This document shows, piece after piece, positions 7,931 through 37,548 of a stretch of DNA of 64,000 bases. Source of the DNA: a virus; IMG/VR virus record IMGVR_UViG_3300050120_000135; one strand, written 5' to 3'. Under the pieces are notes generated by a model, which saw only the letters and a list, made by a program, of their open reading frames with translations, was not told where the DNA came from and made no database searches. A program made the position numbers and the translations under genes. The number at the start of each line of letters is the position of its first letter. Position 1 is the stretch's first letter.

Positions 7931-8568
7931 TCGCCCCGATATCCAGAAGATCAGTCGTCGCCGGTATTACCGTATCGTTAATTGCATCAAGAGGCGCGCG
8001 CGCCGACGATCCGCCGATCATCATCACCGGCGATATGGGCATGGTCGGAACGGCCCTCAAAGCACATTGGGCGTCGCGTAATATCGTCGGCGTCGATATA
8101 AAGCGCGGCGACGATCAAGACCTCATGCTTTGGCGTTGGGAGAACTTGGTGCAGCCAGGTTGCACGGTCGTTCATCTGGCGATCCGTCGAGGGTGGGATT
8201 TCGTAACAGCGGAGTACGACCACCGGCTCAACAATCACGTCCTAGAGACCTGTATTTTCAAAAAGGTTCGCAGGCTCATTTTTACCAGTTCTCAGATGGT
8301 GCGCGCGGCCGATCTGCACATGGGCGCGCTGACGTACTACGCGGCCGAAAAACTCGGCATGGAGGCGATGATCCGCGCCGCCAGTGAGCAGGGAAGTTTT
8401 CAATCGCGCATCCTTCGTCTAGGTAGCTTCGGTCCGTACAAGGCCGATCACGACTGGACGCGGGCCGACGAAGCTACGCTCGGATATTGGTTTGATCTTG
8501 CGGCCGACATGAACGATGTATCACCACTGCAAACGTGGGACGTTATAGGCCGAACCGCCAAAGATTGA
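7927..8568 (+). CDS. short extended-SDR / NAD-dependent epimerase-dehydratase-like protein with Tat-type signal peptide
   Basis: ATGA-coupled start. N-terminus MIAPISRRSVVAGITVSLIASRGARA|DD. Carries GxxGxxG (ITGDMGMVG), VVHLA, FTSSQMV and YxxxK (YYAEK). Confidence 0.75.
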   Translation: MIAPISRRSVVAGITVSLIASRGARADDPPIIITGDMGMVGTALKAHWASRNIVGVDIKRGDDQDLMLWRWENLVQPGCTVVHLAIRRGWDFVTAEYDHRLNNHVLETCIFKKVRRLIFTSSQMVRAADLHMGALTYYAAEKLGMEAMIRAASEQGSFQSRILRLGSFGPYKADHDWTRADEATLGYWFDLAADMNDVSPLQTWDVIGRTAKD

Positions 8569-8624
8569 TTTTTAAGAACGGGGCCGAATCCCTCGGCTCC
8601 GATACCACTAGGAGAAAACGACAA

Positions 8625-9167
8625 ATGCGACGCTTTTTTTTCACGATTCTATTCATGGCCGGGCTCGCCCCGGCGGTCGCGGCCCAAGCGCCGGTCAAAA
8701 CCGACCCCGCCGACGCGATCAATCCCGCGAAACTTACCATCAACGACTGCCTGCTGATCCTGAGTGCGCTGAATGCGCTGGACAGTCATCAGGTGGTGCT
8801 CAATTCCGGAAAAGCCGGAGAGCAGCTGGTGACCGTGCCATACGAGTTCGCGAAGGGCGGCCTCCGCCTGGACATCGCCCATAACATCGCGGTGCTGGTC
8901 GGTGTCCAGCGGGAGTCGCAGGCCGCGCAGCAGAAGATTTTCTACGAGGTCCTCAAAGCGGTTCCGGAGACGAAGCCCGGAGAGGCCGCGATGGAGATCA
9001 AGCCCGGAACGCCCCAAAGCGTCGAGTACGACCGGCAGCTCCGGGAGCTCACCGCCAAACCATGCGGCGCGCCACTGACACGCATCAACGCCGAGGACCT
9101 TAATCTCACCAAGAACCAGATTCCGGTCGGCGTGCTCTCGAACCTGGATAAGATACTCGACCGGTAA
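8625..9167 (+). CDS. secreted hypothetical protein (Sec signal peptide)
   Basis: AGGAGA lies upstream. N-terminus MRRFFFTILFMAGLAPAVAAQA|P. No recognisable family. Confidence 0.7.
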   Translation: MRRFFFTILFMAGLAPAVAAQAPVKTDPADAINPAKLTINDCLLILSALNALDSHQVVLNSGKAGEQLVTVPYEFAKGGLRLDIAHNIAVLVGVQRESQAAQQKIFYEVLKAVPETKPGEAAMEIKPGTPQSVEYDRQLRELTAKPCGAPLTRINAEDLNLTKNQIPVGVLSNLDKILDR

Positions 9168-10473: not shown

Positions 10474-10791
10474 TCAGTCGTCGCCGGCATCCTCCGACCT
10501 GGACTTCGCGAGAGCCGCATCGAAGTCATGATCGTAAACCGCGCTCATTTCGCGCAGCTGCTGGATCTGCTCGGCCGTGGTGGCCTTGTTGTTTGACAAC
10601 GCCGTGATGGCGTCGGTGACGATCGGCTTCAGCGCCTTGTACTCCTTCAGCGCCAGCGGACCGTATTCGGTCAGCACCGTGATGACGGTGCCGACGACGC
10701 CGGTGCTCGCGGTGGCGAGCGTCGGCAGAAGTGCCTTGATAAGACTGAAGACGGCCGGAACGCCGGCCGCGGCGATTGCTGCAATGCTCAA
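10474..10791 (-). CDS. membrane protein (105 aa), lysis-cassette member
   Basis: N-terminal TM-like MSIAAIAAAGVPAVFSLIKALL... and an acidic C-terminus. Confidence 0.6.
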   Translation of the reverse strand: MSIAAIAAAGVPAVFSLIKALLPTLATASTGVVGTVITVLTEYGPLALKEYKALKPIVTDAITALSNNKATTAEQIQQLREMSAVYDHDFDAALAKSRSEDAGDD

Positions 10792-11210
10792 TTCGCGCTC
10801 CCGATGTTGTAGGTAGTGAAGATGTTCTGCAGCGTCGATATTGAAATTTTCAACACGTCGTAAAGGCCCTGGTCGCCGATCGCGTCAGGGTGTGCCTCGA
10901 CAAAGCCGAGCAGTTGATCCCGTGACGACCGCCCCGTCAGAATCGCGGTAGCGATCGTCTCGCGAATTGGAACGGACATGCAGGTCGGCTTCTGGATGCC
11001 TTTCGGGCATCGCGGCTGACTGATGTAGACCGTTGCCGTTGCCTCGACAGCGTTGAACGCGCTTACCGCGACCTTGATGGCCGCCTTGTTGACGACGACC
11101 GAAGCCGCCACCGCCCACGTCTGCCGCAGCGTGTCGATCGCGCCGCACCCGGCGACCGATACCGACAGCAGCACCAGCGCTGCCGCCAATCTGAAGAACC
11201 GCATCGCCAT
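10788..11210 (-). CDS. lipoprotein (140 aa), possible outer-membrane spanin-like or exclusion protein
   Basis: Signal peptide with lipobox LSVSVAG|C. Confidence 0.7.
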   Translation of the reverse strand: MAMRFFRLAAALVLLSVSVAGCGAIDTLRQTWAVAASVVVNKAAIKVAVSAFNAVEATATVYISQPRCPKGIQKPTCMSVPIRETIATAILTGRSSRDQLLGFVEAHPDAIGDQGLYDVLKISISTLQNIFTTYNIGSAN

Positions 11211-11239
11211 TTTCTCCCCGTTAGATTTTCGATTGAAAG

Positions 11240-11731
11240 TTAAGCTGTCGGTGCCGGGTTCGGCGGTGCCGGCGGCAATGCTGCAGGCGTCGACACCACA
11301 TTGCCGCTCGTAGCAGCAAGCGGCGCCAGCTCCGCATTGACGACGCCGCGCGATCCGATGTCCGGAGAAGACGCCGCGTTGACGAGCGCCACCTTGGCTT
11401 CAAGGTTCCCTGCCTTCGCCAGAGCAAAGACGCGGTTCACCGCGTTGCCGATTCCGCCAGCATCGATACCCCACTTGGTGAGTACGGCCGCGATCACGGG
11501 GAAAACGATAAACCAGATGTCAGCCGCAGCACCGATGAAGGTCCGCAGCGATTCGTACATCAGGTTCGCGCTTTCGAGGATCGACGCCTGCTGGTCCGGC
11601 GAGAAAGTGCCGAGGAACATGAAGATCGCCATGCCGCCCATGCTGAAGACGGTCGCGTAGCGAGATCCCGTCTTGACCTTGTTCGTCGTGTCAGTGGGCG
11701 CCGGCAGGTTCGCGGTCGTGGTCTCGGCCAT
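11240..11731 (-). CDS. holin-like membrane protein
   Basis: GGGAGAA RBS before MAETTT. Two clear TM helices. Lies directly downstream of the endolysin. Confidence 0.5.
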   Translation of the reverse strand: MAETTTANLPAPTDTTNKVKTGSRYATVFSMGGMAIFMFLGTFSPDQQASILESANLMYESLRTFIGAAADIWFIVFPVIAAVLTKWGIDAGGIGNAVNRVFALAKAGNLEAKVALVNAASSPDIGSRGVVNAELAPLAATSGNVVSTPAALPPAPPNPAPTA

Positions 11732-11796
11732 AGCCGTTTTCTCCCGTGTGGGTGGATGGTCCTTACACGTCCGCGCGCGCGGACGCATCAAGATTC

Positions 11797-12354
11797 TTAG
11801 GCAGCAATCGACAAATCGGTGAAGAAGGCCTTTGCGATCGCGGCAATCTCGGCCGCCTTGTCCGTGCCGTTAATTATGCGCCTTGCGTTCAGCCAGTCGG
11901 TTTTATCCTTGCTGAAATAGTCCGCCAGTTTCTTGCCGGTGAACACGCCGCCGATCATACCCTCGAACATCACGAAGGCCGCGACGTCCGGATCGAGCGC
12001 GAGCTCCGGGTTCGCCATCAGATCAGTCTTGAAGCCGGCAGCCTGGAGCAGCTTCGTCATCTTCTTGTAATTGTAGTCCCACGTCAGCTGCACATAGCCG
12101 CGGCCATACCATGGATAATATCGCTTCGACTTCAGGTAGGCGAGCCCTCCTCCTTCCTTGATCGGCTGCATCGTGTGATCGGTTTCCCACTTCGTCGTCG
12201 CCAGCATGTAGGCGAGCCAGCGCAGGTCCGAAAGCTGCTTGCGCCGCTCCCACTCATCGAGTATCGCGGACGTGCCGGAGACCTGCCCTGTGGTCAGCTT
12301 TCCCGAGAACGGTTGTTGCCGGATGCCAGCAAAAAACTTTTGCCTGTTGATCAT
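11797..12354 (-). CDS. endolysin, glycoside hydrolase family 19 (chitinase-like)
   Basis: 185 aa. YGRGYVQLTWDYNY matches the GH19 signature. Confidence 0.9.
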   Translation of the reverse strand: MINRQKFFAGIRQQPFSGKLTTGQVSGTSAILDEWERRKQLSDLRWLAYMLATTKWETDHTMQPIKEGGGLAYLKSKRYYPWYGRGYVQLTWDYNYKKMTKLLQAAGFKTDLMANPELALDPDVAAFVMFEGMIGGVFTGKKLADYFSKDKTDWLNARRIINGTDKAAEIAAIAKAFFTDLSIAA

Positions 12355-12632: not shown

Positions 12633-15600
12633 TCATTGCCTTCGTCCAACGTTTTTCATGGCGTCGATTTCGGAGCGCAAATTGTCGTTGTCGGTTTTGA
12701 GTTTTTGGATTGCGCCAGCAAGCACCGCTGTCATTTCCTGATAGCGGACGCCGCTGAGTATGCCCTTGGGGTCGCGACCAACCAAGCGCTCATCAACTAG
12801 CATTACTTCTTCTGCACCGAACCCGAACTGCTCATAATGCCCGCTGTCTCCGTAGCCGGGCTTATAGCGGAACGCGAAAGGATTAAGCCTTGACACAATG
12901 TCGAGGGCTTTTCCCGGTGCCAGATGTTCGGTTATATTTTTTGCCGCCATAATCGAAGTCAGGCATCCGACCGTGGTGTCCACCGTGAACTTGCCGGTCC
13001 CCGTCGTCCAGCAAACAGTTCCGGTTTGTGCTGCCGATGATGTTGTAATGCTTGGCATAAAAATCTGCGCGGACAAACTTAAAGATGGAGCGGTAACTGT
13101 GCCGCTTTGTGAGGTGAGATTGAGGCCGCCGTCTACGGTCGATCGAAAGATCGTCGTTCCACCGCCAATGTCGATGACGCCTAAACCAGGGGCCAAAGTT
13201 AAATTTTGCCCTACTGCGATCGTTAATCCGTTCGTAAACGTTGTCGCAGGCGTAATCGTTACCGCGCCGGTCGAGACTGATCCGATCCCGATCGTACCCG
13301 AGCCCTTTGCGTTTATCGTCACGTTCGCACTCGATCCGGAGTCGATAGCCGCGATCGCGACGGTGCCGCCAGTCACGGCTCCCGTGACCTTTAATCCCGC
13401 CGCCTGCGATGCCGGCGAGGCATCGATAAGAAACGCCGGATTGGTTGCTCCATTAAGCCCGACTGCGAGCGCCGACGCCGACGCCGACGTGATGGTATGA
13501 ACACCACTTCCGAGCGTCGTGAACGTTCCGGCTAACGGGGTCGAAGTCCCGATTATGACGTTGTTGATCTGATTTCCGCCACCCGCGATCGTGCCGCCAA
13601 GCGTAAATGCATTAACGGTAGTCGGAGAGATCGTGCCGAATACCTGCGTTCCCGTGAACGTCTGTCCGGCATCGGTTCTAGCTATCGTCGCACTCGTCGA
13701 CGGAAACGTCATCGTCGTCGTGTCGGTGCCGGAGATCGTGATCGAATTATTAAACGTCAGCGTCTTTCCGGCCGCTCCCGTCAACGTATAGGTGCCGGTC
13801 GTTAAGGTATTGCCGTTATAGCTCGTCGCCGTAATAGCGCCGGCGCCGGAGATATTGTTACTCCCCATCGATATGGTACCGGCGGCCGTAAAGGCGTTGA
13901 TCGTCGTCGCCCCAATCGTCGCGGCGGTTAGCGTTCCGGTGAAGGTCGGGCTCGCGGAGAAGACCAAGTTCGTAGAGGTCGTGCCGGTCGTGCCGGCGGC
14001 CGAAAGTCCGGTGATGTTGTTGAAGCACGTTATGGAGGCGGCGGAGCAATTCGTCCCGCCGTTCGCGACCACCAACGTGCCGGCGAGCGTAATCGCGCCA
14101 GTCGTCGCGGAGTTCGGCGTCAGCCCCGTCGTTCCGGCCGAAAACGACGCAACCGACCCGCCCGTCGTCGCCAGCGTCCCGCTGGTCGGAAACGTGACGT
14201 TGGTCGTGCCGGTCAGCGTTCCCGTGAACGGGAAGGCGCCCGACATCGTGAAGTTGCCGGCGGTGGATAAATTGCCGCCAAGGCTTAGGGTTCGAGAAGC
14301 GTTGTTAATCGCGATCGTCAGTACGCGCTGCGCGGTGTTGCCGGCCTCCGTGTTGGCGATCACCAAATTGAAGCCGGACGTCGGATTGGCGAGCGAGAAC
14401 CCGGTCGCGCCGCCGATCGTGCCGTTGTTGAACGCCCCGCCGTTGATCAGCGTGCCGATCAAACCGTAGGCGCCGCCCGCTCCGCCGCCGACCGGACCGC
14501 TGACGATTCCGTTGCTGGGCGGCGTCACGACGCACGGAGCCGTAACGTCGTTGTCGAACCAGATTCCTGTTCCGGTTACGTTGGCGGTATTGCCCGGGGT
14601 CTCACACTGCGCGTTCCACAGTTTAGTCGACCCGCCTAGCAACTGATAAGCGGTCGTCGTGTGCGCGCTAGTCCCGTCGGCATTGAACGAAACGTAGGTG
14701 TTGCCCTCCGTGGAGTTGTCGAAGAGACCGAACGATCCGCCCCACGTCTGCGCGATACAATTCGTACAGGTTCCCTTGTTGCTGTCAGAACCTTCAATGT
14801 GGAAGCTATCGCCGTAGGAGTGACGACCCAAGACGTTGTCGAGCTGCCAGTTGTCGGCGATCGCTCCGGTCGGCGTCGAGGCCGCTCCCGATAATACCGC
14901 GACGCTGTGGCCGCCGAACCCGGATACTGCCCCCTGATTGCCGACCTGAAGCTGCGCGCCCCTGAAGAACGCGCACTGAATCGTCAGCCCGTTGTTGCTG
15001 CCTGCGCTGGTGTCGCTTCCCAACAGAAAGCCGTTCGCGATTACGCTGAATTGCGCGGCGTTCAGGCAGATCGGTCCGGCGACGCCGGCGTTGAACAGGA
15101 GCGTCGAATTGTTGAGGTCGAGGAAGGTTCGCTTCGATATAACCGGCTGCGTCGCGATGCCGGTGTAGTTGTTCGACAGGAGGACGATCGTCCCGCCGGT
15201 CGCCGGAAGCGCCGCTTCCGCGGCGTTGATCTGTGCGCCGATGTCGGAGCCGGCGAATGAATTGGCTAAAAGGTAGGAGCCTCCCGCGACCGCGATTCCG
15301 TTCACGTAGAGACCGGCCGCATTGATGGTTCCGCTTCCCTGACTCCCGCCCGTGACGGTCGACGGCCAGGTGAGACCACCGTCGTTTTCGACGTGCCCAC
15401 GACTCGTCAGAGTCGTGCTTCCGATAAGCGTCGTAGCAAAATCAATGAAGGTAGGATGGCTGGTGTTCGACCAGGTCGCGGCGGAGAAAATTCGGACCGC
15501 GCCGGCCGGTCCCGCTCGCGTCGCGCCGTCGAAGCCGAAACCGTTCAGCGAGACGATTTCGTTATTCGCAACAAGCGTCGTCGGCGACGCCTTCGTGCCG

Positions 15601-16145
15601 TTGGCGCGAACTCCCGTGAAATGAGACGCCGCCGCGTAGCTGTCCGCCTCTATGCGCGCGACCGCGCCGTTGCCCTGGCTGGCCTGCAGAACCGTCCCGG
15701 CCTGAATCGCGTCGGCGCCGGACGAATTTCGATTGATGATCTGCGTGTCGAGGAACGTGTTCGTCGCGTTCGTGACGGCGCAGACCGGGCAGGCCGCGTT
15801 GATGAGGTCGACGGTCGCGCCGTTGATGCGCGCGAACAGGCCAGCGGTCGTGCACCACTGATCGCCGTTTATCGGGGATGCGGGAGCGGTGCCGCATGTC
15901 AGGTTGAAGCCCGCCGTCGACGCGCCCGGAGCTGCGGTGACGATGCGACCTGAGAAGGTGCCACCGGCGACGTTCATCGGCGTATAGCCAAGCACGTCCT
16001 GCTTGCTGGCGAACAGGTTGTTCCACTGCGCCGGAGTCAGCACTTGGCCTTGCGTAAAATGCGGATTCGTCTGCGCAAGCGCGGGATTCGGCAGCAGCGC
16101 TGCTGCGAAAATGATGCCGGCTAGTAGCTTCTTCAGCGTCTGCAT
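12633..16145 (-). CDS. tail fibre / tailspike-like protein with beta-helix region and C-terminal S74 intramolecular-chaperone domain
   Basis: 1170 aa. AAGGA RBS upstream. The C-terminal 107 aa (SIMAAKNI...FGFGAEEV...VRYQEMTAVLAGAIQKL) fit the Peptidase_S74 chaperone domain. Contains G/T/S-rich fibre repeats. The N-terminus is signal-peptide-like. Confidence 0.85.
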   Translation of the reverse strand: MQTLKKLLAGIIFAAALLPNPALAQTNPHFTQGQVLTPAQWNNLFASKQDVLGYTPMNVAGGTFSGRIVTAAPGASTAGFNLTCGTAPASPINGDQWCTTAGLFARINGATVDLINAACPVCAVTNATNTFLDTQIINRNSSGADAIQAGTVLQASQGNGAVARIEADSYAAASHFTGVRANGTKASPTTLVANNEIVSLNGFGFDGATRAGPAGAVRIFSAATWSNTSHPTFIDFATTLIGSTTLTSRGHVENDGGLTWPSTVTGGSQGSGTINAAGLYVNGIAVAGGSYLLANSFAGSDIGAQINAAEAALPATGGTIVLLSNNYTGIATQPVISKRTFLDLNNSTLLFNAGVAGPICLNAAQFSVIANGFLLGSDTSAGSNNGLTIQCAFFRGAQLQVGNQGAVSGFGGHSVAVLSGAASTPTGAIADNWQLDNVLGRHSYGDSFHIEGSDSNKGTCTNCIAQTWGGSFGLFDNSTEGNTYVSFNADGTSAHTTTAYQLLGGSTKLWNAQCETPGNTANVTGTGIWFDNDVTAPCVVTPPSNGIVSGPVGGGAGGAYGLIGTLINGGAFNNGTIGGATGFSLANPTSGFNLVIANTEAGNTAQRVLTIAINNASRTLSLGGNLSTAGNFTMSGAFPFTGTLTGTTNVTFPTSGTLATTGGSVASFSAGTTGLTPNSATTGAITLAGTLVVANGGTNCSAASITCFNNITGLSAAGTTGTTSTNLVFSASPTFTGTLTAATIGATTINAFTAAGTISMGSNNISGAGAITATSYNGNTLTTGTYTLTGAAGKTLTFNNSITISGTDTTTMTFPSTSATIARTDAGQTFTGTQVFGTISPTTVNAFTLGGTIAGGGNQINNVIIGTSTPLAGTFTTLGSGVHTITSASASALAVGLNGATNPAFLIDASPASQAAGLKVTGAVTGGTVAIAAIDSGSSANVTINAKGSGTIGIGSVSTGAVTITPATTFTNGLTIAVGQNLTLAPGLGVIDIGGGTTIFRSTVDGGLNLTSQSGTVTAPSLSLSAQIFMPSITTSSAAQTGTVCWTTGTGKFTVDTTVGCLTSIMAAKNITEHLAPGKALDIVSRLNPFAFRYKPGYGDSGHYEQFGFGAEEVMLVDERLVGRDPKGILSGVRYQEMTAVLAGAIQKLKTDNDNLRSEIDAMKNVGRRQ

Positions 16146-16157
16146 TGAGCGGTCCTT

Positions 16158-16805
16158 TTAGATCGTGAAGTCTGGAAGCTGCCAGCTGTCGATGGTCTCG
16201 AGCGTAAGATCCTCGATGTCATGGTGCGCCTGCGCTGCTGCCCGCTCTGTCTCGTTGATACGGCGTCGGCGCTCGACTTGCTCGAGCAGATGCTTCGTAT
16301 CTTCGGGCGCACGCCGGCGATCAATCTCGGCGCCGACGTCAACGGTGGCAGATAATCCCGTCGCCTTTGCGATGGTCCTGATCACGCCCTGCTTCGACAA
16401 CTCCGCTGACAGTTTGGCGTCGGCTTCGCGAATGTCATTCTCTCGCAAATTGAGGGCACGGCGCTTACCAAGTGGAACGATGGCAGCGATCGCCGCGGCC
16501 TCCGCGGCCGACACCGCACGCAGAAGGTCGTTTTTCTTCGACTGCAGAACCTGCATTGGCGTCGGATCGTCGTTGACGACTTCGTAATCCGCCACGTCAT
16601 TCTCATTGACGGCCGCCTCGACCAGCGGGTGCGCACTAGGCCGAGGGTACGCGACGTGCCTCTCGATCGCCGGCAGGTCCGGCTTGCCTTCGTCCGCACG
16701 AACGCTTGCCATGTGAGCGCGCCAATTTCGCATCTCGAGCGCGTGCGCGGCCACCGCTACCTCAAAGTCGGCCTGGATTTGGGACTTCAATACTCGGTAG
16801 GTCAT
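16158..16805 (-). CDS. hypothetical protein between the two fibre genes (215 aa)
   Basis: ATGA-coupled to the upstream fibre gene. Charged, helical composition. Confidence 0.6.
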   Translation of the reverse strand: MTYRVLKSQIQADFEVAVAAHALEMRNWRAHMASVRADEGKPDLPAIERHVAYPRPSAHPLVEAAVNENDVADYEVVNDDPTPMQVLQSKKNDLLRAVSAAEAAAIAAIVPLGKRRALNLRENDIREADAKLSAELSKQGVIRTIAKATGLSATVDVGAEIDRRRAPEDTKHLLEQVERRRRINETERAAAQAHHDIEDLTLETIDSWQLPDFTI

Positions 16806-17869
16806 AGCTTGATGTTCCAGAAGACGGTGAGGTTTTGCGAGACGGTGTTGTGCGCGGCATTGGAGCCCGAGGAAGCGTTGTTGATCGTGATCCCGGTCGC
16901 CGCGAACGACGTTGCTGTGGCGGTATTTTGGGCGCTGACCGCTAACCCGCCGGAAGCTGCGTTGACCGTGGTAACGGGCGCCAGCATACCGTGCTGGTGG
17001 GTGGGGTCGGTGAGCGAGTTGGCGTGCGAATGAGCCGCGAGCTCGCCCGTCACGAGCACATGGAGGTTCTCGCCGAGGAATGAACCAGGTGTCGTCGCAT
17101 TCCCTAGGATGATCGGAACGCCGCTGAGCCGCACGGTGGGAGCTACCAGGTTTCCCATCGTGTCTACGCCTACTACCCCGCGCCCTCTCATGTCCGGGGT
17201 TGCCAAAGCCTTGTTGGCGGCAAAATCGGCGTCTGGATTTGCCCCCCTTGTTGTGGGGGTTTGAGTGCTGTCATAGATCGGACAGGCGGTGTTGGAGAAA
17301 CGTAGCCAGATCGACCGGAAGGCCAGCAGCGCGTCGGCGTTCGCGCGACCCATCGCGTTCGACGCCGCGTTGCCGACGGTCAGGGTGTTAGCTGCGACGA
17401 AGCCGGTCGGCACCGTCGAGGAAAACGACGGCACCGGCGTACCCGGGGAGATGCGGCCCGGGTCCGGCACCCAATTCGCCGCCGAGACCGAGTCGGGATC
17501 GGTTGTGTTGTTGTCCGCCGTCGACATCCAGAAGTCGCCGGGGACGACGTTAGACATCACGATCGCATACTTCGGATAGCCTCCGCTGCCCGTCGCAAAG
17601 GTGGCATCATACGAGATCGAACCGCCCGCCTCGACCCACTGACACCATTGCGTGATCTGCTTCAGCAGCCCGTTCATATCCTGACCAAATGGCGGAACGC
17701 CACCGGCGCCTAGCGGCGTAAAATTGTCTGGCACGAAGCCGTCGGTAAGCGATGCCGCGCCGTCCTGGACACCGATCTGCGACGCCACCGGAATTGGTCG
17801 GATGAACGCACCGGCTGCCGCGTTCGCAAAGGGAATGGGGAATGAGGGCGGCGGGCTGGACAGCAGCAT
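16802..17869 (-). CDS. tail fibre protein with phage tail-collar domain
   Basis: 355 aa. C-terminal LVTGELAAHSHANSLTDPTHQHG is tail-collar-like. GAGGGAAA RBS upstream. Confidence 0.8.
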   Translation of the reverse strand: MLLSSPPPSFPIPFANAAAGAFIRPIPVASQIGVQDGAASLTDGFVPDNFTPLGAGGVPPFGQDMNGLLKQITQWCQWVEAGGSISYDATFATGSGGYPKYAIVMSNVVPGDFWMSTADNNTTDPDSVSAANWVPDPGRISPGTPVPSFSSTVPTGFVAANTLTVGNAASNAMGRANADALLAFRSIWLRFSNTACPIYDSTQTPTTRGANPDADFAANKALATPDMRGRGVVGVDTMGNLVAPTVRLSGVPIILGNATTPGSFLGENLHVLVTGELAAHSHANSLTDPTHQHGMLAPVTTVNAASGGLAVSAQNTATATSFAATGITINNASSGSNAAHNTVSQNLTVFWNIKL

Positions 17870-17883
17870 CGTTTATTTTTCCC

Positions 17884-18540
17884 TCAGACTGTGACGACGG
17901 TCAACGATACGCCGGTCGACTTTGGCAGCGCGCCCGACTGTTGAACGATCGCGAGCTCGACCGGTGTTAACGCAAACTCGAACTTGAAGGTCATCGTCAT
18001 GTCGAGACCATCAATGACGTAGCAGTTGCCGCGGTTCGGAAACAGGTTGAGCAAGATCTGGTTAATTGCCGGAATCGAACCGTCGCAGATATTGGCAAGC
18101 GCTTTGGCAAAGATCAGTGTTCGGTACGCCGTGTCCGATAGAATGAAGTTGTTGTTGATCTGCTGACCAGAAAAAAACGGCGCGTTGTTGAAGGGCTGTG
18201 CTGGAATGCCGGCTTCCTCGAACCCCAGGAAATCCTGGTCCCCAGACGTCGTCACCGTTCGACTGACCACAACGATGCGCCCCCACACATCGAGCCCCCA
18301 ACCCTGCGCAGTGTCGACGTTCATCACCAGGTCGTAGAAGCTTTGAAAGTCGATCGTGGTGTCGAGGTAGGAATCCATGTTCTCGATCAGGCGCGTCAGT
18401 GTCGGCGAATTCGCATACTGCGAGATGATCGTCTTCCAGACGTCGAAGCTTGGGATGTCACCTATCGGCGAGACGCCGATGATGAAATTGCCGATCGCAT
18501 TCGAGCCAGCGCGCTGCGCAAAAATATCGGGGCCGCTCAC
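17884..18540 (-). CDS. baseplate protein (DUF2612-like, gpI position)
   Basis: 218 aa. Sits just downstream of the baseplate J gene. The N-terminus resembles the DUF2612 family by recollection. Confidence 0.65.
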   Translation of the reverse strand: MSGPDIFAQRAGSNAIGNFIIGVSPIGDIPSFDVWKTIISQYANSPTLTRLIENMDSYLDTTIDFQSFYDLVMNVDTAQGWGLDVWGRIVVVSRTVTTSGDQDFLGFEEAGIPAQPFNNAPFFSGQQINNNFILSDTAYRTLIFAKALANICDGSIPAINQILLNLFPNRGNCYVIDGLDMTMTFKFEFALTPVELAIVQQSGALPKSTGVSLTVVTV

Positions 18541-19967
18541 GTCAGGGTCACCGCGATGTTGTTGGCATTGATCGTCGGCACCTGGTCGGCGTTGACGTCG
18601 ACGAGCTGCAGCGTCGGCTTCGCCGCCTTCATTGCTCGACTCGAAACGGTCAGCGAATTATTGATGACCCAACTCGACCCCGACCCCGACTGAATAACGG
18701 TGCCGGCAGGTATCGCGCCGAGCAGATCAGAAATCGTCTGTCCAATCGCGATCGTTCCGGTAACAGCGGACGTGGTGAGCGCGGTTCCGGCGATCGAGCC
18801 GGTGAAGGTCGCCCCGGTCGTGTTGTTGGATCCGACCAGTATCGAGATCGGCTGCACCCACGAGCCAAGTGCCGCGATCGGCGCGTAATAGCGGCTTGCG
18901 AAGATCGACGAGGCAATGCGCGCCCGCGTGCCGCCGTCGGCGCCGGCGAAGGCTGCGATGATGGCTGCCTGGATCAGGGCAGCAGCATTTGAGGGGACTT
19001 GCGAATTGTTGGACAGCACCACCGCGAACAGGATAGCCAGCGACGACGGCCGCTCGAAACTGACCGCATACGACGGCAGCGGCGGCGAGTATCCGGAATT
19101 GCTGTCGTAGACCGTAACCGTCGTGTTGCCGTTGTAGCCGCAGCCCGGCGCCTTCTTAGTCCATATCGAATTGGCGACATCCTGATCTAGGCCGCCCACC
19201 GCCGACACATAGAGCGATTTTGCCGCGATCGACACGCCGCGAATTGTGATCGGCGAGGAAGTGGTGTTTTCCGTCACGTAAGCGTCGAGCACGTCCGAGA
19301 CATCGAGCACGGCACCGAGAACGGAGGGAAGCGAACCGCGCGCATTCTTGGCGACCTGCGCCTGCCGCTGCAATTCAAACTCAGCGCGGCTCTGCACAAG
19401 ATTGCCGAGCACGCCGTCGGCAATGTTGGTGATGCTGTCCCATCCGGGGATAGCTTGAAAGATTGTCGACAGGCTACCGGCCGGGCACGCGATCGGCCCA
19501 TTTGTGTTGCACGCAAAAGTCAGCGTGATGTTACCGGTCGAAGGAATGCCCGTTACCGGATCCGTGCCGTCGGTGCACGTATAGATCAGCCCGTCCGTTG
19601 CTCGAGCGGTGGCGCCGGCCGGAATGATGACGCCCTGCCCGCCGGTGCAAAGCGCCTCGACAACAGTCGGCTGCGCCGGCTTGCGCGTGATGAAATAAAT
19701 ACGACCTAGCGCGTCCTGCGCGCGCCCCGACGCATAGGCCGGGTCGAAGTTGTTGAACAGGTTTACGACGCTTGAATTCTTCTCGCCGATGATCGCGGTC
19801 GTCGAAGTTGCCAGCTGTCCTTGCGGCGTGTTCAGCGCCGGGTTGACGCCGCCACCGAATGCCGCATCGATGTCCGTCTGCACGCCGGCGAGCACGGCCG
19901 CGTCGCTCGGCGCGACAAAGCCTCGATCGGTGAAGGTCAGGCCGGGAACATTGGTCGTCACTGTCAT
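18537..19967 (-). CDS. baseplate J/gp47-family protein with extra C-terminal module
   Basis: 476 aa. Position and length fit the Mu/P2 baseplate order. The C-terminus carries the TGSIAG module. Confidence 0.8.
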   Translation of the reverse strand: MTVTTNVPGLTFTDRGFVAPSDAAVLAGVQTDIDAAFGGGVNPALNTPQGQLATSTTAIIGEKNSSVVNLFNNFDPAYASGRAQDALGRIYFITRKPAQPTVVEALCTGGQGVIIPAGATARATDGLIYTCTDGTDPVTGIPSTGNITLTFACNTNGPIACPAGSLSTIFQAIPGWDSITNIADGVLGNLVQSRAEFELQRQAQVAKNARGSLPSVLGAVLDVSDVLDAYVTENTTSSPITIRGVSIAAKSLYVSAVGGLDQDVANSIWTKKAPGCGYNGNTTVTVYDSNSGYSPPLPSYAVSFERPSSLAILFAVVLSNNSQVPSNAAALIQAAIIAAFAGADGGTRARIASSIFASRYYAPIAALGSWVQPISILVGSNNTTGATFTGSIAGTALTTSAVTGTIAIGQTISDLLGAIPAGTVIQSGSGSSWVINNSLTVSSRAMKAAKPTLQLVDVNADQVPTINANNIAVTLT

Positions 19968-35241: not shown

Positions 35242-37398
35242 TCAGCCCGCCTTACGGACCTTGGCAGCGTTCGGGAAGCGGCTGTTGAAGTCGCTGGTGG
35301 TGGCGCTGTCCTGCGCGATCGTGGCGTGCTGGCGCGCGCCAGGAGCCGGGATGGCGTCCCACAGGGCCTGCAGCGCCGGGAGCTCCTTGATCTTGGAGAC
35401 GTCGCGGTCCTGCATTTTGAACGCCTGACGATAGACGCCGTCGGCGCTGTCGAAGGCCATGTCGAGAACGCCGACGATCGGCTGCACGTGCGCCTTGGCC
35501 GCGGACACCGCGTTCATGCGCGCGATCGTGGCGTCGGTGTTGGCCTTCAGCGCCGCGTCCATCGCGCCCTTCGACACGAAGTCGGGCTTTTTCTTCTTTC
35601 CGTCGGGCCCGGCTTCGGGTTCGACAACAACGCCATCCTTGGCACCAGCCTTCGCCAGAGCCGCGGCCTTCGCGGCCTCGTCGTCGGGATCGCCTTCGCC
35701 CATGCCGGGCATGCCGGCAATCACGTCGTCGGGGACGCCCTTTTCCTTCAGGTAGGCACGCACGGCCTCCATGGGACCGCCGGCGTCCATCGACGTATCG
35801 TCGCCGTCGATATCGTCGTCGCTGTCGAGTTCGTTCGGGTCTCGCTCGAGGTCGCTATCCTCGACGGTCTTGTCGCCGTCGATCGACGCCATCAACTTCT
35901 CGACGCCCTCGATCACGCCGACCAAGTCGCCGTCCTGCGCCAGCTTGATCTTGCCAAGCGACTTGCGCAGCGCCTTGATGAAGTTCGGAGTCGACTCCTT
36001 GAACTTGCCGGGCTCGAACGTGCCGAGCGCGCCGGCGATATTCGGCATCGCTGCGTCCATTGCCAGCCGCGGCCGCAGGAACGCGGTCAGAGCGCCATAC
36101 GCAACGGTCGCCTTCATGCTCTTGAGTGCCATCTTCATAGTCTCCTGTTGGGGTTGCAGTGCTTCGTCAAGGGCGACGTCCGAACCGGCTCGTCCCTTTT
36201 TAACCAGGCAAACATGGTTTCCGACCATGTTGCGCATCACGCCGTCGTAGGGTTCGCCCTCGTAAGTCCCCGGCGTCATGTCCGCGTCGTATGAATAGGC
36301 GCTGGACAATTCTTTTTGCTTCTTGCTGTCGACGTGATCGCGGCCGTCGCGCGACCAGACTGCAAGGCTGTTGAACAGATACGGGTGCTGGTACTCGGCT
36401 TCGGAGCCGACGGTGCCGACCGTGATATCGCCATCGTGCTCGTCGGCCGAATGCGGCACGTGTCGATCGAGCAGCGGCAGATTGTGAAACGTCGAGGCTG
36501 CCTTCTTGATCTCGTCTGGATGGCGCAGCAACCGGTAGACCCTGCCGGGATCCAGGCCGAGCTCGTTACCCTTCGGGATCTCGCGGCCGTAATACGGATT
36601 GATGCCGGCCTTGGTGATCGGCGCGCGCTTGACGTGCAGCCGCTCGAACCCGTCGACGTTGCGGCCCTGCGACGTGTCTCGATCGAACGCCAGCTTGACC
36701 AGCACCCCCCGGCGCAGATCCTCCAGCCCTTCCGGCGCCCGGTCGAACGCCAGCTCCGGACCGCGGATGCCGGCGATATCGGCCGCCAAAGCGGCGAACG
36801 CCGCGTCCATGGCGCCAAGGCCGGGCTTCATGGGCCAATCGTTCGTGGGGGATATCCCCGACCCGCCGCAGCCAGCGCACCCACGGCCGTTACAAGCTGC
36901 GTGGACGCCGTCCTGCGCCGTATCGTCGGGGTCGTCGATCGCGGCCCACTCGGCAAGTTCCTCGCCGTCGGTGACATTTCGCTCGTCGATCGTCTTCAGC
37001 ACCGCCGGATGCATGGGCTTGGGCAGCATGTCGATCATGGCCCACGTGTAGCCCGTATGCTCGCCGTCGTTCAGCAGCGGAGCGAAGCGCTCGTCGACCG
37101 CCTGCGCGAACGTATGAAACACCATCCCGTTCGGGGTCTTGCGCTGGTCGAGCAGCCGGCGATCGCCGATCGGCGCTGTGCCACCGGTTTCCTCGGCCGC
37201 CTCGCGCTCCGCGCCGCGCAAGATGGACTCGCCGTCGTCGACCTTGCCACCAGGCAGGCACCAGTGCCCCGCATAGTTCTCCTCGGCCGGCGATCGGTGC
37301 AGGAACAGCATCGAGCCGTCCGGCGCCACGAACAGCGTACCCGCGGCATGGCCTTTCGCGCCGGCCTGGTCGACCAGCTGCGGCTTCTTGATCGCCAT
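35242..37398 (-). CDS. Nudix hydrolase fused to DUF2213-like prohead protease/scaffold protein
   Basis: GAGGTG RBS before MAIKKPQLV. Perfect Nudix box GGKVDDGESILRGAEREAAEETGG. The middle region (PITKAGINPYYGREIP...LSSAYSY...YDGVMRNMVGNHVCLVKKGRAG) is DUF2213-like. The C-terminus is acidic and helical. Confidence 0.85.
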   Translation of the reverse strand: MAIKKPQLVDQAGAKGHAAGTLFVAPDGSMLFLHRSPAEENYAGHWCLPGGKVDDGESILRGAEREAAEETGGTAPIGDRRLLDQRKTPNGMVFHTFAQAVDERFAPLLNDGEHTGYTWAMIDMLPKPMHPAVLKTIDERNVTDGEELAEWAAIDDPDDTAQDGVHAACNGRGCAGCGGSGISPTNDWPMKPGLGAMDAAFAALAADIAGIRGPELAFDRAPEGLEDLRRGVLVKLAFDRDTSQGRNVDGFERLHVKRAPITKAGINPYYGREIPKGNELGLDPGRVYRLLRHPDEIKKAASTFHNLPLLDRHVPHSADEHDGDITVGTVGSEAEYQHPYLFNSLAVWSRDGRDHVDSKKQKELSSAYSYDADMTPGTYEGEPYDGVMRNMVGNHVCLVKKGRAGSDVALDEALQPQQETMKMALKSMKATVAYGALTAFLRPRLAMDAAMPNIAGALGTFEPGKFKESTPNFIKALRKSLGKIKLAQDGDLVGVIEGVEKLMASIDGDKTVEDSDLERDPNELDSDDDIDGDDTSMDAGGPMEAVRAYLKEKGVPDDVIAGMPGMGEGDPDDEAAKAAALAKAGAKDGVVVEPEAGPDGKKKKPDFVSKGAMDAALKANTDATIARMNAVSAAKAHVQPIVGVLDMAFDSADGVYRQAFKMQDRDVSKIKELPALQALWDAIPAPGARQHATIAQDSATTSDFNSRFPNAAKVRKAG
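36979..37353 (-). other. Nudix domain of the protease/scaffold fusion
   Basis: The Nudix box lies at 37180..37251 (Gx5Ex7REUxEExGU fully satisfied). Confidence 0.85.
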
Positions 37399-37548
37399 CG
37401 GGCACCTCATGGAATTGGTGCCGGCGGGCGGGGCTAACCCACTCTGCGCGCCCCGTCGGGCCTCGCCGGCAAAGCCTGTGCGCGTCACGCGCGGCTGAAG
37501 TGAGGAAGCACCAAGCCGCCGTCTAAGCCGGCGAACCGGCCACGCACA

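Follow-up and report, generated by a model that had tools for sequence, protein, structure and literature searches.

The tail fibres of tailed phages are regarded as being assembled wholly in the cytoplasm. In the window analysed here, a DNA stretch of 64,000 nucleotides from a soil myophage, the ORF 12633..16145 on the minus strand encodes a fibre-like protein of 1170 aa that begins with what looks like a Sec signal peptide, and the locus raises the question of whether such a fibre is exported and, if it is, whether it ever becomes part of a virion. The first-pass annotation had described this ORF as one with a ribosome-binding site and a clear start, and this was borne out: the ATG at 16145 is the first start downstream of an in-frame TAA located 15 nt before it, and it is preceded by AAGGA. 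The gap between the stop of the upstream gene and the fibre gene is 12 nt, and the arrangement of the two genes is therefore regarded as operonic. A scan for promoters and terminators around the fibre gene gave nothing above shuffled expectation. The 1170-aa protein had no match in PHROGs or NCBIfam, and in Pfam the S74 domain alone was matched. The elements of the gene and of its product are as follows.

16153..16157, minus strand: ribosome-binding site AAGGA, 7 nt before the ATG, read directly from the sequence
16074..16145, minus strand: signal peptide, residues 1-24 (MQTLKK / LLAGIIFAAALL / PNPALA), from a profile across 154 distinct homologues
15996..16073, minus strand: mature N-terminal motif, residues 25-50 (QTNPHFTQGQVLTPAQWNNLFASKQD), family-defining
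15729..15995, minus strand: residues 51-139, generic fibre-shaft repeats, with multi-stretch matches in signal-less fibres
15276..15728, minus strand: residues 140-290, beta-sandwich fibre domain, pLDDT 85-97, with structure matches
14466..15275, minus strand: residues 291-560, six-cysteine module, probably a right-handed beta-helix, weak beta-helix matches
12957..14465, minus strand: residues 561-1063, Thr/Gly/Ala-rich repetitive shaft and distal tip
12636..12956, minus strand: S74 intramolecular chaperone, residues 1064-1170, matched by Pfam and PDB 8jov

Two other ways of reading the start of the gene were rejected. The 215-aa gene upstream is in the same frame and only four codons away, but this is not the case in locus L002, and the resemblance to a read-through fusion was put down to coincidence. 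An internal start producing a cytoplasmic isoform was set aside, as Met57 is not conserved and the residue at +1 is Gln in most homologues.

The first 24 residues contain Lys5 and Lys6 in the n-region, no Asp or Glu, an h-region of 12 residues (LLAGIIFAAALL; mean Kyte-Doolittle value of 2.6 over 10 residues) and the c-region PNPALA, which has Ala at both -3 and -1 and is followed by Gln at +1. Neither a lipobox Cys at +1 nor a twin-Arg is present, so the N-terminus is of neither the lipoprotein nor the Tat type, and cleavage by signal peptidase I is predicted after Ala24, between AxA and QT. Signal-peptide calls were rule-based. By one crude rule 2 of the 73 non-overlapping ORFs of the window were signal-like, the other being the lipoprotein encoded at 10788..11210. 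In the aligned homologues Lys or Arg predominates at positions -34/-33 (150 homologues), Ala occupies -3 in 112/152 and -1 in 115/154, and Gln occupies +1 in 123/154. Across the 154 distinct homologues entropy is high in the h-region, where the N-terminus is least conserved, and low in the mature part, and the n/h/c pattern with its AxA|Q site is kept while the sequence of the h-region drifts; the basic n-region and the Pro/Ser/Gly-rich c-region are likewise conserved. The family profile is hydrophobic across only about 10-11 columns, which is shorter than a transmembrane helix. The signal was present in 101 of 129 library representatives and in nearly all of the 68 loci. The rare homologues without it, L015 (MAGPPNLTY..) and L064/65 (MGSSPDFVPGEVPTAAQWN), begin precisely at the predicted cleavage site, and the signal thus appears to be a removable add-on. 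Both observations, a variable sequence with a conserved n/h/c organisation and AxA in 154 homologues and signal-less relatives that start exactly at the cleavage site, uphold the earlier proposal of a cleavable Sec signal in place of a docking helix. As judged from these alignments, the N-terminus is a family-wide signal-peptide trait and not a chance hydrophobic stretch.

The cysteines of the protein are arranged in a striking order. All 14 fall into seven sequential close pairs, with a summed spacing of 98 against 535 expected (p ~8e-5), and from this pairing we infer seven local disulfides. Two pairs, Cys84/Cys98 and the motif C119-P-V-C122, are located within residues 51-139; the pairs 360/391, 460/463 and 514/538 of the central domain are invariant in its three homologues; Cys700/707 and the conserved pair C1045-x15-C1061, just before the cleavage serine, are located within residues 561-1063. 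Signal-bearing homologues contain 10.2 Cys per 1000 aa and those without a signal 2.9 (p=2e-6); the signal-less L015 has a single Cys in 665 aa.

The mature protein would begin with the motif of residues 25-50, in which Q-W is invariant and G, V, T, F, K, Q and D are nearly invariant among the 154 homologues; a predicted helix (residues 38-52) starts within it. The following shaft repeats, of the patterns KQD..G..P.N..GG..G and FNL.PG..P..P.NGD.W, had low pLDDT as a monomer, and the same module is found in the fibre of Stenotrophomonas phage StenR_269. Residues 140-290 matched many phage fibres in BFVD and the T5 L-shaped tail fibre 4uw7 (E 3e-5), and their best structural matches were the Bdellovibrio MAT fibres Bd1334/Bd2439 (E 1e-8 to 6e-7). 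For residues 291-560, which had no match in Pfam and only three homologues, the earlier suggestion of a beta-helix middle found weak support: the top Foldseek matches were all parallel beta-helix enzymes or tailspikes, but with E>=0.026 and TM 0.3-0.4, and the mean pLDDT of the model was 55. With three homologues and a poor model for this domain, the label 'depolymerase' was not adopted. Homologues resemble the window protein over residues 1-115 or 1-290 and diverge beyond, giving mosaic C-termini that look typical of receptor-binding proteins.

At the C-terminus, the score of Pfam PF13884 was borderline at a cut-off of 22, with 22.2 bits for the isolated C-terminal fragment and 21.4 for the full protein, and the C-terminus of the solved tail fibre PDB 8jov was matched with E=2e-7. 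Both results support an S74 domain, and the coordinates given for it in the first-pass annotation, 12636..12956, correspond exactly to residues 1064-1170. S1064-IMAA-K1069 aligns with SDERLK of 8jov with the spacing kept and Ile in place of the usual Asp; Ser1064/Lys1069 is a putative S74 dyad, and the domain is predicted to cut itself off once the trimer has formed.

The surroundings of the gene are those of a phage tail operon followed by lysis genes.

17884..19967, minus strand: baseplate wedge (DUF2612, similar to XM1 gp17) and Baseplate_J genes
16802..17869, minus strand: fibre 1, 355 aa, without a signal peptide here, PHROG tail fibre (E 4e-32)
16158..16805, minus strand: acidic helical protein of 215 aa between the two fibre genes, no family match
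10788..12354, minus strand: lysis cassette directly downstream of the fibre gene
11797..12354, minus strand: GH19-like cytoplasmic endolysin, with no signal or SAR sequence
within 11240..11791, minus strand: holin-like protein with two TM segments
10788..11210, minus strand: lipoprotein, signal-like by a crude rule

The signal-bearing fibre gene was the last tail gene, after sheath-TMP-hub-J-wedge-fibre 1, in about 60 of the 68 loci, most of which were (pro)phages of Rhizobiales; relatives include prophages in Bradyrhizobium sp. LjRoot220, Rhizobium freirei PRF 81 and Labrys sp. La1. It was also found after a P2-like baseplate (L063) and after another myophage baseplate type (L025). This placement, the operonic 12-nt gap and the mosaic C-termini speak for a virion context. 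The 215-aa gene was syntenic in those loci that are most similar to the window (L001, L002, L008, L021, L024, L027, L031-33, L044, L057 and L060). Further signal-bearing proteins were clustered downstream of the fibre in many loci. By its gene content, the baseplate module is of the simple myophage type, XM1/Pam3/Bcep1-like; the same sheath/hub/J/DUF2612-wedge/fibre module is found in Vibrio XM1, Pseudomonas Pam3/E217-type, Burkholderia Bcep1/phiE131 and Pseudomonas Orisa phages. In the cultured phages vB_E436 and Orisa03, however, the wedge is followed by a single fibre gene, which encodes no signal, and a second fibre with a signal is absent. The large-hole holin pathway, in which cytoplasm and periplasm are mixed at lysis, is established lysis biology, and an endolysin with neither a signal nor a SAR sequence indicates that this pathway is probably the one used here.

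Similar features were observed in the family of the neighbouring fibre 1. The first-pass annotation had called it a tail-collar fibre; its identity as a tail fibre holds (PHROG E 4e-32), but the Pfam tail-collar model gave no match even at E<=5. Its N-terminal motif PPSFPIPF..IRPIP..SQIG is common to the baseplate fibres of cultured Bcep1-, phiE131- and Orisa-type myophages, so that the 355-aa protein of the window has the docking region of simple-baseplate myophage fibres. Among the 120 best full-length homologues of fibre 1, 101 carried a signal (Ala at -1 in 92 of them), and signal-bearing homologues retained the docking motif as KFPIPW..IRSIP..SQIG. The signal was tightly coupled to a Cys37/58 pair (98/3/1/18), with at least about 12 independent switches on the tree, and signal and cysteine pair co-evolve in this family. 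An RBS-like sequence precedes the signal-peptide ATG in fibre 1 homologues, and in three loci the old Met codon is now CTG; an alternative internal start is possible in some homologues that keep a Met right after AxA. It had been suggested that the neighbour could be the true virion fibre and the signal-bearing protein hence perhaps a free depolymerase or decoy, a conclusion that does not follow in view of the signals of these 101 homologues with their docking motif: because fibre 1 homologues carry both, export is compatible with a virion-fibre role in this phage group. In L022 and L061 both fibre genes were signal-bearing, and the endolysin gene followed directly. A comparison of how far the N-termini track the baseplate, set against a known docking domain, pointed neither way: the Spearman correlation with J identity was 0.34 for the signal-bearing fibre, 0.29 for the N-terminus of fibre 1 and 0.68 for the wedge.

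The reading that we prefer, at somewhat short of an even chance, is that the fibre is exported by Sec, folded in the periplasm, cleaved at its S74 domain and then probably attached to the virion at lysis as a second receptor-binding fibre. The gene would be transcribed late in infection with the baseplate and fibre genes. Residues 1-24 would direct Sec export, and cutting by signal peptidase I after Ala24 would leave Gln25 at the head of the strongly conserved 26-residue motif. The chain would fold and trimerise in the oxidising periplasm with its seven local disulfides, guided by the C-terminal chaperone, which would then cleave itself off at Ser1064. After the envelope has been opened by the holin and the cytoplasmic endolysin, mature fibres would meet particles assembled in the cytoplasm and attach to them, serving as a second fibre that determines host range, next to the 355-aa one without a signal. 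Sequence comparison shows how the signal is built and conserved, that the cysteines pair, that gene order is kept and that signal and cysteines evolve together in the sister family; export, signal cleavage, disulfide formation and, above all, attachment to the virion after lysis we infer.

Several observations count against attachment. The phage of the window already has a complete fibre without a signal. The N-terminus with signal and motif was found with at least three baseplate types and on the podovirus-like contig L068, and such a spread is unusual for a baseplate-specific anchor. Lone copies were found outside phage modules, one between lptB and rpoN in Methylocella (L018) and one in a small integrase island of Bradyrhizobium LB11.1.

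These findings give weight to an alternative that we consider unlikely but serious, the idea of the first-pass annotation, in which the protein is exported and never virion-bound, and the mature trimer builds up in the periplasm and is freed at lysis as a glycan-binding or -degrading protein that strips exopolysaccharide or LPS near neighbouring cells, or neutralises receptors on debris, and so spares the progeny. It would suit the N-terminal module that is not bound to a single baseplate type, the lone chromosomal copies, the complete signal-less fibre in the window and a central module resembling parallel beta-helix lyases, hydrolases and tailspikes, among them the exported bacterial VexL and WceF. 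The architecture is also that of the MAT fibres of Bdellovibrio, whose action involves no virion (PMC10769870). Several family members of 170-250 aa, however, are too short for an enzyme domain, the beta-helix itself is weakly supported (pLDDT 55, E>=0.026), and neither the conserved 26-residue motif nor the fixed position in the tail module would be explained. A protein released by lysis needs no signal unless periplasmic folding matters, a point that applies equally to a virion fibre. Fibre 1 orthologues with a docking motif are signal-bearing as well, and in L022 and L061 the particle would be left without a fibre from the tail module.

It is improbable that the exported protein acts on the envelope of the producing cell, binding or cleaving the phage receptor in the periplasm or on the surface and causing superinfection exclusion or preventing re-adsorption, as T5 Llp or Cor do but with a fibre as the blocking agent, or else serving as a cell-surface adhesin. 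Exclusion proteins that have a signal and are encoded next to tail genes are familiar (Llp, Cor, Lom), and the additional signal-bearing proteins downstream of the fibre in many loci point the same way, as does the surface location of MAT fibres (PMC10769870). However, the gene belongs to the late tail operon and showed no separate promoter, which would leave little time to mask receptors; it is not evident how the protein would cross the outer membrane, and a long, disulfide-rich, S74-matured shaft would be over-built for a blocker. An N-terminus that stays uncleaved, as an anchor or baseplate-docking helix of a fibre assembled in the cytoplasm, is the default expectation for tail fibres and agrees with an AlphaFold helix at residues 2-16, but is very improbable given an h-region of ~10-12 residues that is too short for a stable transmembrane helix and the least conserved N-terminal part, the conservation instead of Ala-x-Ala, c-region and basic n-region, homologues that lack the segment and start at the cleavage site, and its co-variation with cysteine pairs.

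Known systems offer partial parallels to the window fibre. The receptor-binding pIII of inoviruses has a cleavable Sec signal and periplasmic disulfides and joins the particle beyond the cytoplasm, as proposed for the window fibre; it differs in that the filament is extruded through the envelope, with no tail, no lysis and no homology. The mosaic adhesive trimer (MAT) fibres of Bdellovibrio bacteriovorus, such as Bd1334, Bd2439 and Bd3182, have a signal peptide, a conserved N-domain and a mosaic trimeric fibre, with a C-terminal S74 in 13 of 21; their genes lie on the chromosome of a predatory bacterium, and they function on its surface or in a vesicle (PMC10769870). Since MAT fibres are made via the Sec route, phage-type fibres can be. 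The window fibre, in contrast, is encoded inside a phage tail operon beside baseplate genes, and it lacks the MAT-specific beta-rich N-domain of ~130 aa: after the signal comes the 26-residue QWN..KQD motif with its helix and then generic fibre repeats. It appears to be MAT-like in biogenesis yet no member of the MAT family, with similarity in distal fibre domains only. Trimeric phage fibres and spikes with an S74-type chaperone cleave it off at a C-terminal Ser-Lys dyad, as is predicted for the window fibre, which resembles 4uw7 in residues 140-290 and 8jov at its C-terminus; those fibres and spikes have no signal, are assembled onto the virion in the cytoplasm and are not cysteine-paired.

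Secreted and SAR endolysins of tailed phages are Sec-dependent (PMC6116005). In the literature searched, tail fibres with a Sec signal were not described for any tailed phage, an absence that is not proof, and no precedent was found for fibre assembly after export in such a phage. Spanins, Lom/Bor, Cor and T5 Llp are late or moron proteins that use host Sec, some of them encoded beside tail-fibre genes, and we know of no protein in this group, endolysins included, that is a fibre or virion structural protein, their roles being lysis, exclusion and host adhesion. When the gene, its first 290 aa and a consensus-type N-terminus were searched by megablast and tblastn against 50,697 phage records for cultured relatives, none had the N-terminus with signal and motif; weak matches were to generic fibre repeats only, in Rhizobium phage Paso and in the signal-less fibre of StenR_269.

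The signal shared by hundreds of uncultured relatives suggests that these fibres fold in the periplasm and not in the cytoplasm. We put forward tentatively, at less than an even chance, that widespread uncultured soil myophages, mostly of Rhizobiales, route fibres via Sec and mount them on fibreless particles only at the holin breach, and that two unrelated fibre families have each gained and lost the signal many times along with cysteine pairs. If fibres are exported, a compartment and the host factors Sec, signal peptidase and Dsb would join phage morphogenesis, and virion assembly would end outside the cytoplasm, in a post-lysis maturation that would affect the measurement of burst size, host range and the engineering of receptor-binding proteins. 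Disulfide-stabilised fibres could then arise in phages that survive in soil, and annotation pipelines should keep signal-bearing proteins as structural candidates. The repeated coupling of signal and cysteine pairs offers a clean natural experiment on a protein's change of compartment. Even if the protein is a free adhesin or enzyme, it would represent a large undescribed family of phage-encoded secreted fibres, the counterpart of the Bdellovibrio MAT adhesins.

The open reading frame at 12633..16145 on the minus strand was confirmed, and its product, here called the exported fibre, has 1170 residues. Its ATG was the first start codon past an in-frame TAA 15 nt upstream, which doubles as the stop codon of the preceding gene, and AAGGA was found 7 nt before the ATG. 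The gene is therefore translationally well placed and operonic. Residues 1-24 (MQTLKK, LLAGIIFAAALL and PNPALA, followed by QT) formed a basic n-region, a hydrophobic core of 12 residues and a c-region with proline, with alanine at -3 and -1; neither a lipobox cysteine nor a twin arginine was present in this segment. Using one crude rule, we detected a leader-like N-terminus in two of the 73 non-overlapping ORFs of the window, the second being that of a lipoprotein in the lysis cassette. Signal-peptide calls were rule-based throughout.

The Sec-type leader, proposed in the first-pass annotation, proved on comparison of homologues to be a conserved, selected feature. Approximately 33 of the 39 homologues from an initial search carried a differing but equivalent leader ending A-x-A|Q, followed by the nearly invariant motif (S/T)xPxLxxGQV(P/L)TxAQWNxxFAxKQD. 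In an exhaustive profile-free search, 3813 cluster representatives passed E<=1e-3 and 162 of them also passed E<=1e-30; the leader was observed in 101 of 129 newly listed top representatives. An N-terminal profile of 154 distinct sequences, anchored on the invariant QW, showed K/R at -34/-33, a hydrophobic stretch of ten columns with high entropy and a c-region of Pro, Ser, Gly and Ala. Alanine occupied -3 in 112/152 and -1 in 115/154, and glutamine occupied +1 in 123/154, with low entropy from there on. As a prediction from sequence, this is a textbook signal peptide. A docking helix was considered and rejected: sequence conservation would be expected of it, yet the segment keeps its physical character only. 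Members encoded in three loci (L015 and L064/65) were leaderless and started exactly at the predicted mature end, with MAGPPNLTY.. in L015 and MGSSPDFVPGEVPTAAQWN in L064/65, which shows the leader to be an add-on that can be lost. Very short family members of 170-220 aa combined the signal and the QWN..KQD motif with a C-terminal domain that is small and rich in cysteine (L071-L073 9971-10483; L058/L059 9968-10522; L069 5647-6165; L061 9953-10618), and some of them were encoded between the Baseplate_J (J) gene and the DUF2612 wedge gene. On this comparative evidence, export of the fibre by the Sec pathway with cleavage of the leader is highly probable.

The cysteines of the exported fibre and its homologues were examined as well. 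The 14 cysteines of the exported fibre formed seven sequential close pairs (84/98, 119/122, 360/391, 460/463, 514/538, 700/707 and 1045/1061), with a summed spacing of 98 residues versus 535 expected (permutation, about 8e-5). The six cysteines of the central module were invariant in its three homologues, every one of them signal-bearing; the last pair was conserved and lies just before the cleavage site of the C-terminal S74 chaperone. In the N-terminal alignment, Cys pairs were gained or lost together. Signal-bearing family members contained 10.2 cysteines per 1000 residues versus 2.9 in signal-less ones (p=2e-6), and the signal-less L015 protein had one in 665 residues. The pattern points to folding of the exported fibre in what would be an oxidising compartment. 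The central beta-helix-like six-Cys module recurred with 71% identity in P0041, a 563-aa signal-bearing protein whose N-terminus is unlike that of the exported fibre. Its contig (Logan SRR26290402, 16.9 kb) also contained genes of the Bbp16 and Phage_nozzle types, so a podovirus-like phage has the exported module as well.

The neighbouring fibre, fibre 1, had been put forward as a candidate for the true virion fibre. This distinction was not upheld: the window copy is leaderless, yet its orthologues in relatives often carry a signal peptide, directly before the baseplate-docking motif. The leader and mature start in L022 read MKRFLAIFALVFATGPALA|LTQGSPPPAFPIPW, and leaders were found on fibre 1 at L022 8850-10001, L061 8826-9956, L016 239-1573, L009 8655-9923, L041/L051 8748-9926 and L049 8585-9994. 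An RBS-like sequence preceded the upstream ATG of the leader and not the old start. The old Met codon was CTG in three loci; in some loci it still stands immediately behind AxA, which would allow dual starts. When fibre 1 of L022 was used as a database query, the 120 best matches included the window's own fibre, and 101 of them carried a leader; of these, 92 had alanine at -1 and 89 had it at -3. Presence of the leader went almost perfectly with that of a Cys pair, located where the window fibre has Gly37 and Val58: 98/101 homologues with a leader had the pair versus 1/19 without (contingency table 98/3/1/18), and the signal-less window copy lacks it. A second pair was complete in 99/101 versus 4/19. 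On a neighbour-joining tree from which the Cys-pair columns were left out, a minimum of 12 switches was needed for the leader and of 11 for the Cys pair. These counts may be inflated by recombination or tree error, but the coupling is not confined to one clade. Proteins with and without leader had an equally conserved docking motif. Leaders were found on both fibres of L022 and of L061, and in these two loci a PG_binding endolysin gene came directly after the fibre genes.

The exported fibre is fibre-like over its whole length. All structure models were of monomers. Residues 51-139 are generic fibre repeats, found in signal-less fibres too. Residues 140-290 were modelled with confidence as a beta-sandwich (pLDDT 85-97) whose best solved matches were the Bdellovibrio mosaic adhesive trimer (MAT) fibres Bd1334 and Bd2439 and the T5 L-shaped tail fibre; many predicted phage fibres matched as well. 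A parallel beta-helix is probable for residues 291-560, as the first-pass annotation had it for the middle of the protein, but the depolymerase label was not adopted because the model was poor (pLDDT 55) and the beta-helix matches were weak (E>=0.026). The S74 self-cleaving chaperone was located in the last 107 residues by a Pfam score at the cut-off and by a match to the C-terminus of the solved tail fibre 8jov (E=2e-7), in which SDERLK aligns with S1064-IMAA-K1069.

PHROG and Pfam matches identified the window, part of a 72.8 kb source contig, as phage DNA. They marked a large terminase, a portal fusion, a protease fusion and a major capsid protein on the head side; sheath, tape-measure-like protein, hub, Baseplate_J, DUF2612 wedge and tail fibre on the tail side; and a GH19-like endolysin and a primase/helicase. 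Features of the window apart from the exported fibre gene were as follows.

16802..17869, minus strand: fibre 1, 355 aa.
16158..16805, minus strand: 215-aa acidic helical protein between the two fibre genes; no family match.
11797..12354: signal-less GH19-like endolysin of the lysis cassette.
Within 11240..11791: holin-like two-TM protein of the lysis cassette.
10788..11210, minus strand: 140-aa protein after these two lysis genes, with lipoprotein signal LSVSVAG|C and no family match; possibly an outer-membrane spanin or another lipoprotein.
8535..9167, plus strand, opposite to that of the exported fibre and beyond the lysis genes: signal-peptide-like start MRRFFFTILFMAGLAPAVAA|QAP at an internal Met near 8622; no Pfam match.
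40879..45333, minus strand: unusually large head ORF of 1484 aa from a provisional start, with PHROG matches to portal, minor-head and, at the C-terminus, protease-like proteins.
35242..37488, minus strand: unusually large head ORF of 748 aa from a provisional start, a NUDIX/MutT region (residues 43-168) joined to a head-maturation protease.

Conservation of the 215-aa protein between the fibre genes was limited to the window's closest sub-lineage. Its gene shares the reading frame of the exported fibre, 4 codons upstream; this was not so in L002, and the match is therefore probably chance.

Pattern searches recovered relatives of the exported fibre at 14 loci in genomes, including Bradyrhizobium, Rhizobium, Labrys, Lichenihabitans, Methylocella, an Acetobacteraceae MAG, Sulfuritalea and Paraburkholderia, and on 54 IMG/VR contigs. 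Related prophages lie in Bradyrhizobium sp. LjRoot220 (NZ_CAXUPS020000002.1, 572,774-593,124), Rhizobium freirei PRF 81 (NZ_AQHN01000072.1, 35,646-55,948) and Labrys sp. La1 (NZ_JBMDIH010000001.1, 1,543,913-1,564,239). The order in about 60 of the 68 loci was sheath, tape measure, hub, J, wedge, fibre 1 and directly then the exported fibre, with the 215-aa protein sometimes intervening; in a few loci the exported-fibre gene lay between J and wedge. Leader and motif also followed a P2-like baseplate (L063) and a different myophage baseplate (L025, with L065 as its signal-less counterpart), and occurred in a podovirus-like contig (L068). No cultured phage in a collection of 50,697 records carried them. 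The tail modules closest to the window were from Bradyrhizobium and IMG/VR contigs (J identity 74-79%), and the host we infer from the relatives alone. The nearest cultured modules were those of Burkholderia phiE131/Bcep1-type, Pseudomonas Orisa and Acinetobacter phages (sheath identity 36-46%); in each of the two cultured phages examined, the wedge was followed by one fibre gene only, and its product bore no signal. The window wedge resembles gp17 of Vibrio phage XM1, which has a simple baseplate, and gene products of the relatives matched Pfam families that take their names from phages E217 and Pam3.

Two members stood alone. In a Methylocella MAG (JBOHJU010000066.1, L018 3970-5937), a signal-bearing protein of 638 aa is encoded between an lptB-like gene and rpoN, away from any phage gene, and may be a domesticated exported fibre. 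In Bradyrhizobium sp. LB11.1 (JBEPTH010000007.1, L004 3520-13800), the 804-aa P0015 begins with another hydrophobic N-terminus and is related to the exported fibre over residues 107-289. Its island of about 10 kb encodes an integrase, an HTH_17 protein and DUF5681 and has no tail genes; it could be a fibre-bearing element of a satellite-like kind. Many loci encoded one to three more signal-bearing proteins of unassigned function after the exported fibre (L025 12703-13791; L044 12039-13142; L057 11368-12180; L058 11739-14111; L060 11300-13906; L067 11208-13189; L071-L073 13854-15900), a sign that more late proteins than the fibres may be exported. A Gly_rich_2 domain was present in the L060 protein and also in that of L001 12230-14422, in which no signal peptide was detected.

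For the fate of the exported fibre past export and cleavage, we infer a course that we favour tentatively, at somewhat under even chances. The fibre would fold and gain disulfides in the periplasm, trimerise with the assistance of S74, self-cleave, and attach to particles once the holin and the signal-less endolysin open the envelope. Such a course would explain the position in the tail module, the conserved mature N-terminus, the mosaic character of the distal parts, the occurrence of signal-less variants at the same position and the presence of leaders on a fibre whose docking motif is kept. Its main rival, in which lysis would set free an adhesin or enzyme, is somewhat less probable. The pairing of the N-terminal module with several baseplate types speaks for it, as do lone copies of the family gene and the layout of signal, conserved N-domain, mosaic fibre and S74 that the exported fibre has in common with the Bdellovibrio MAT fibres (PMC10769870). 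Action on the producer's own envelope is unlikely, and that the protein is not exported at all is very improbable. A correlation of N-terminal with baseplate divergence favoured none of these readings. A full-text literature search found Sec-dependent endolysins and MAT fibres, and no Sec-signal tail fibre of a tailed phage. The exported fibre is a known kind of protein, an S74-chaperoned fibre, with what would be a new route of biogenesis, common to a large uncultured family.
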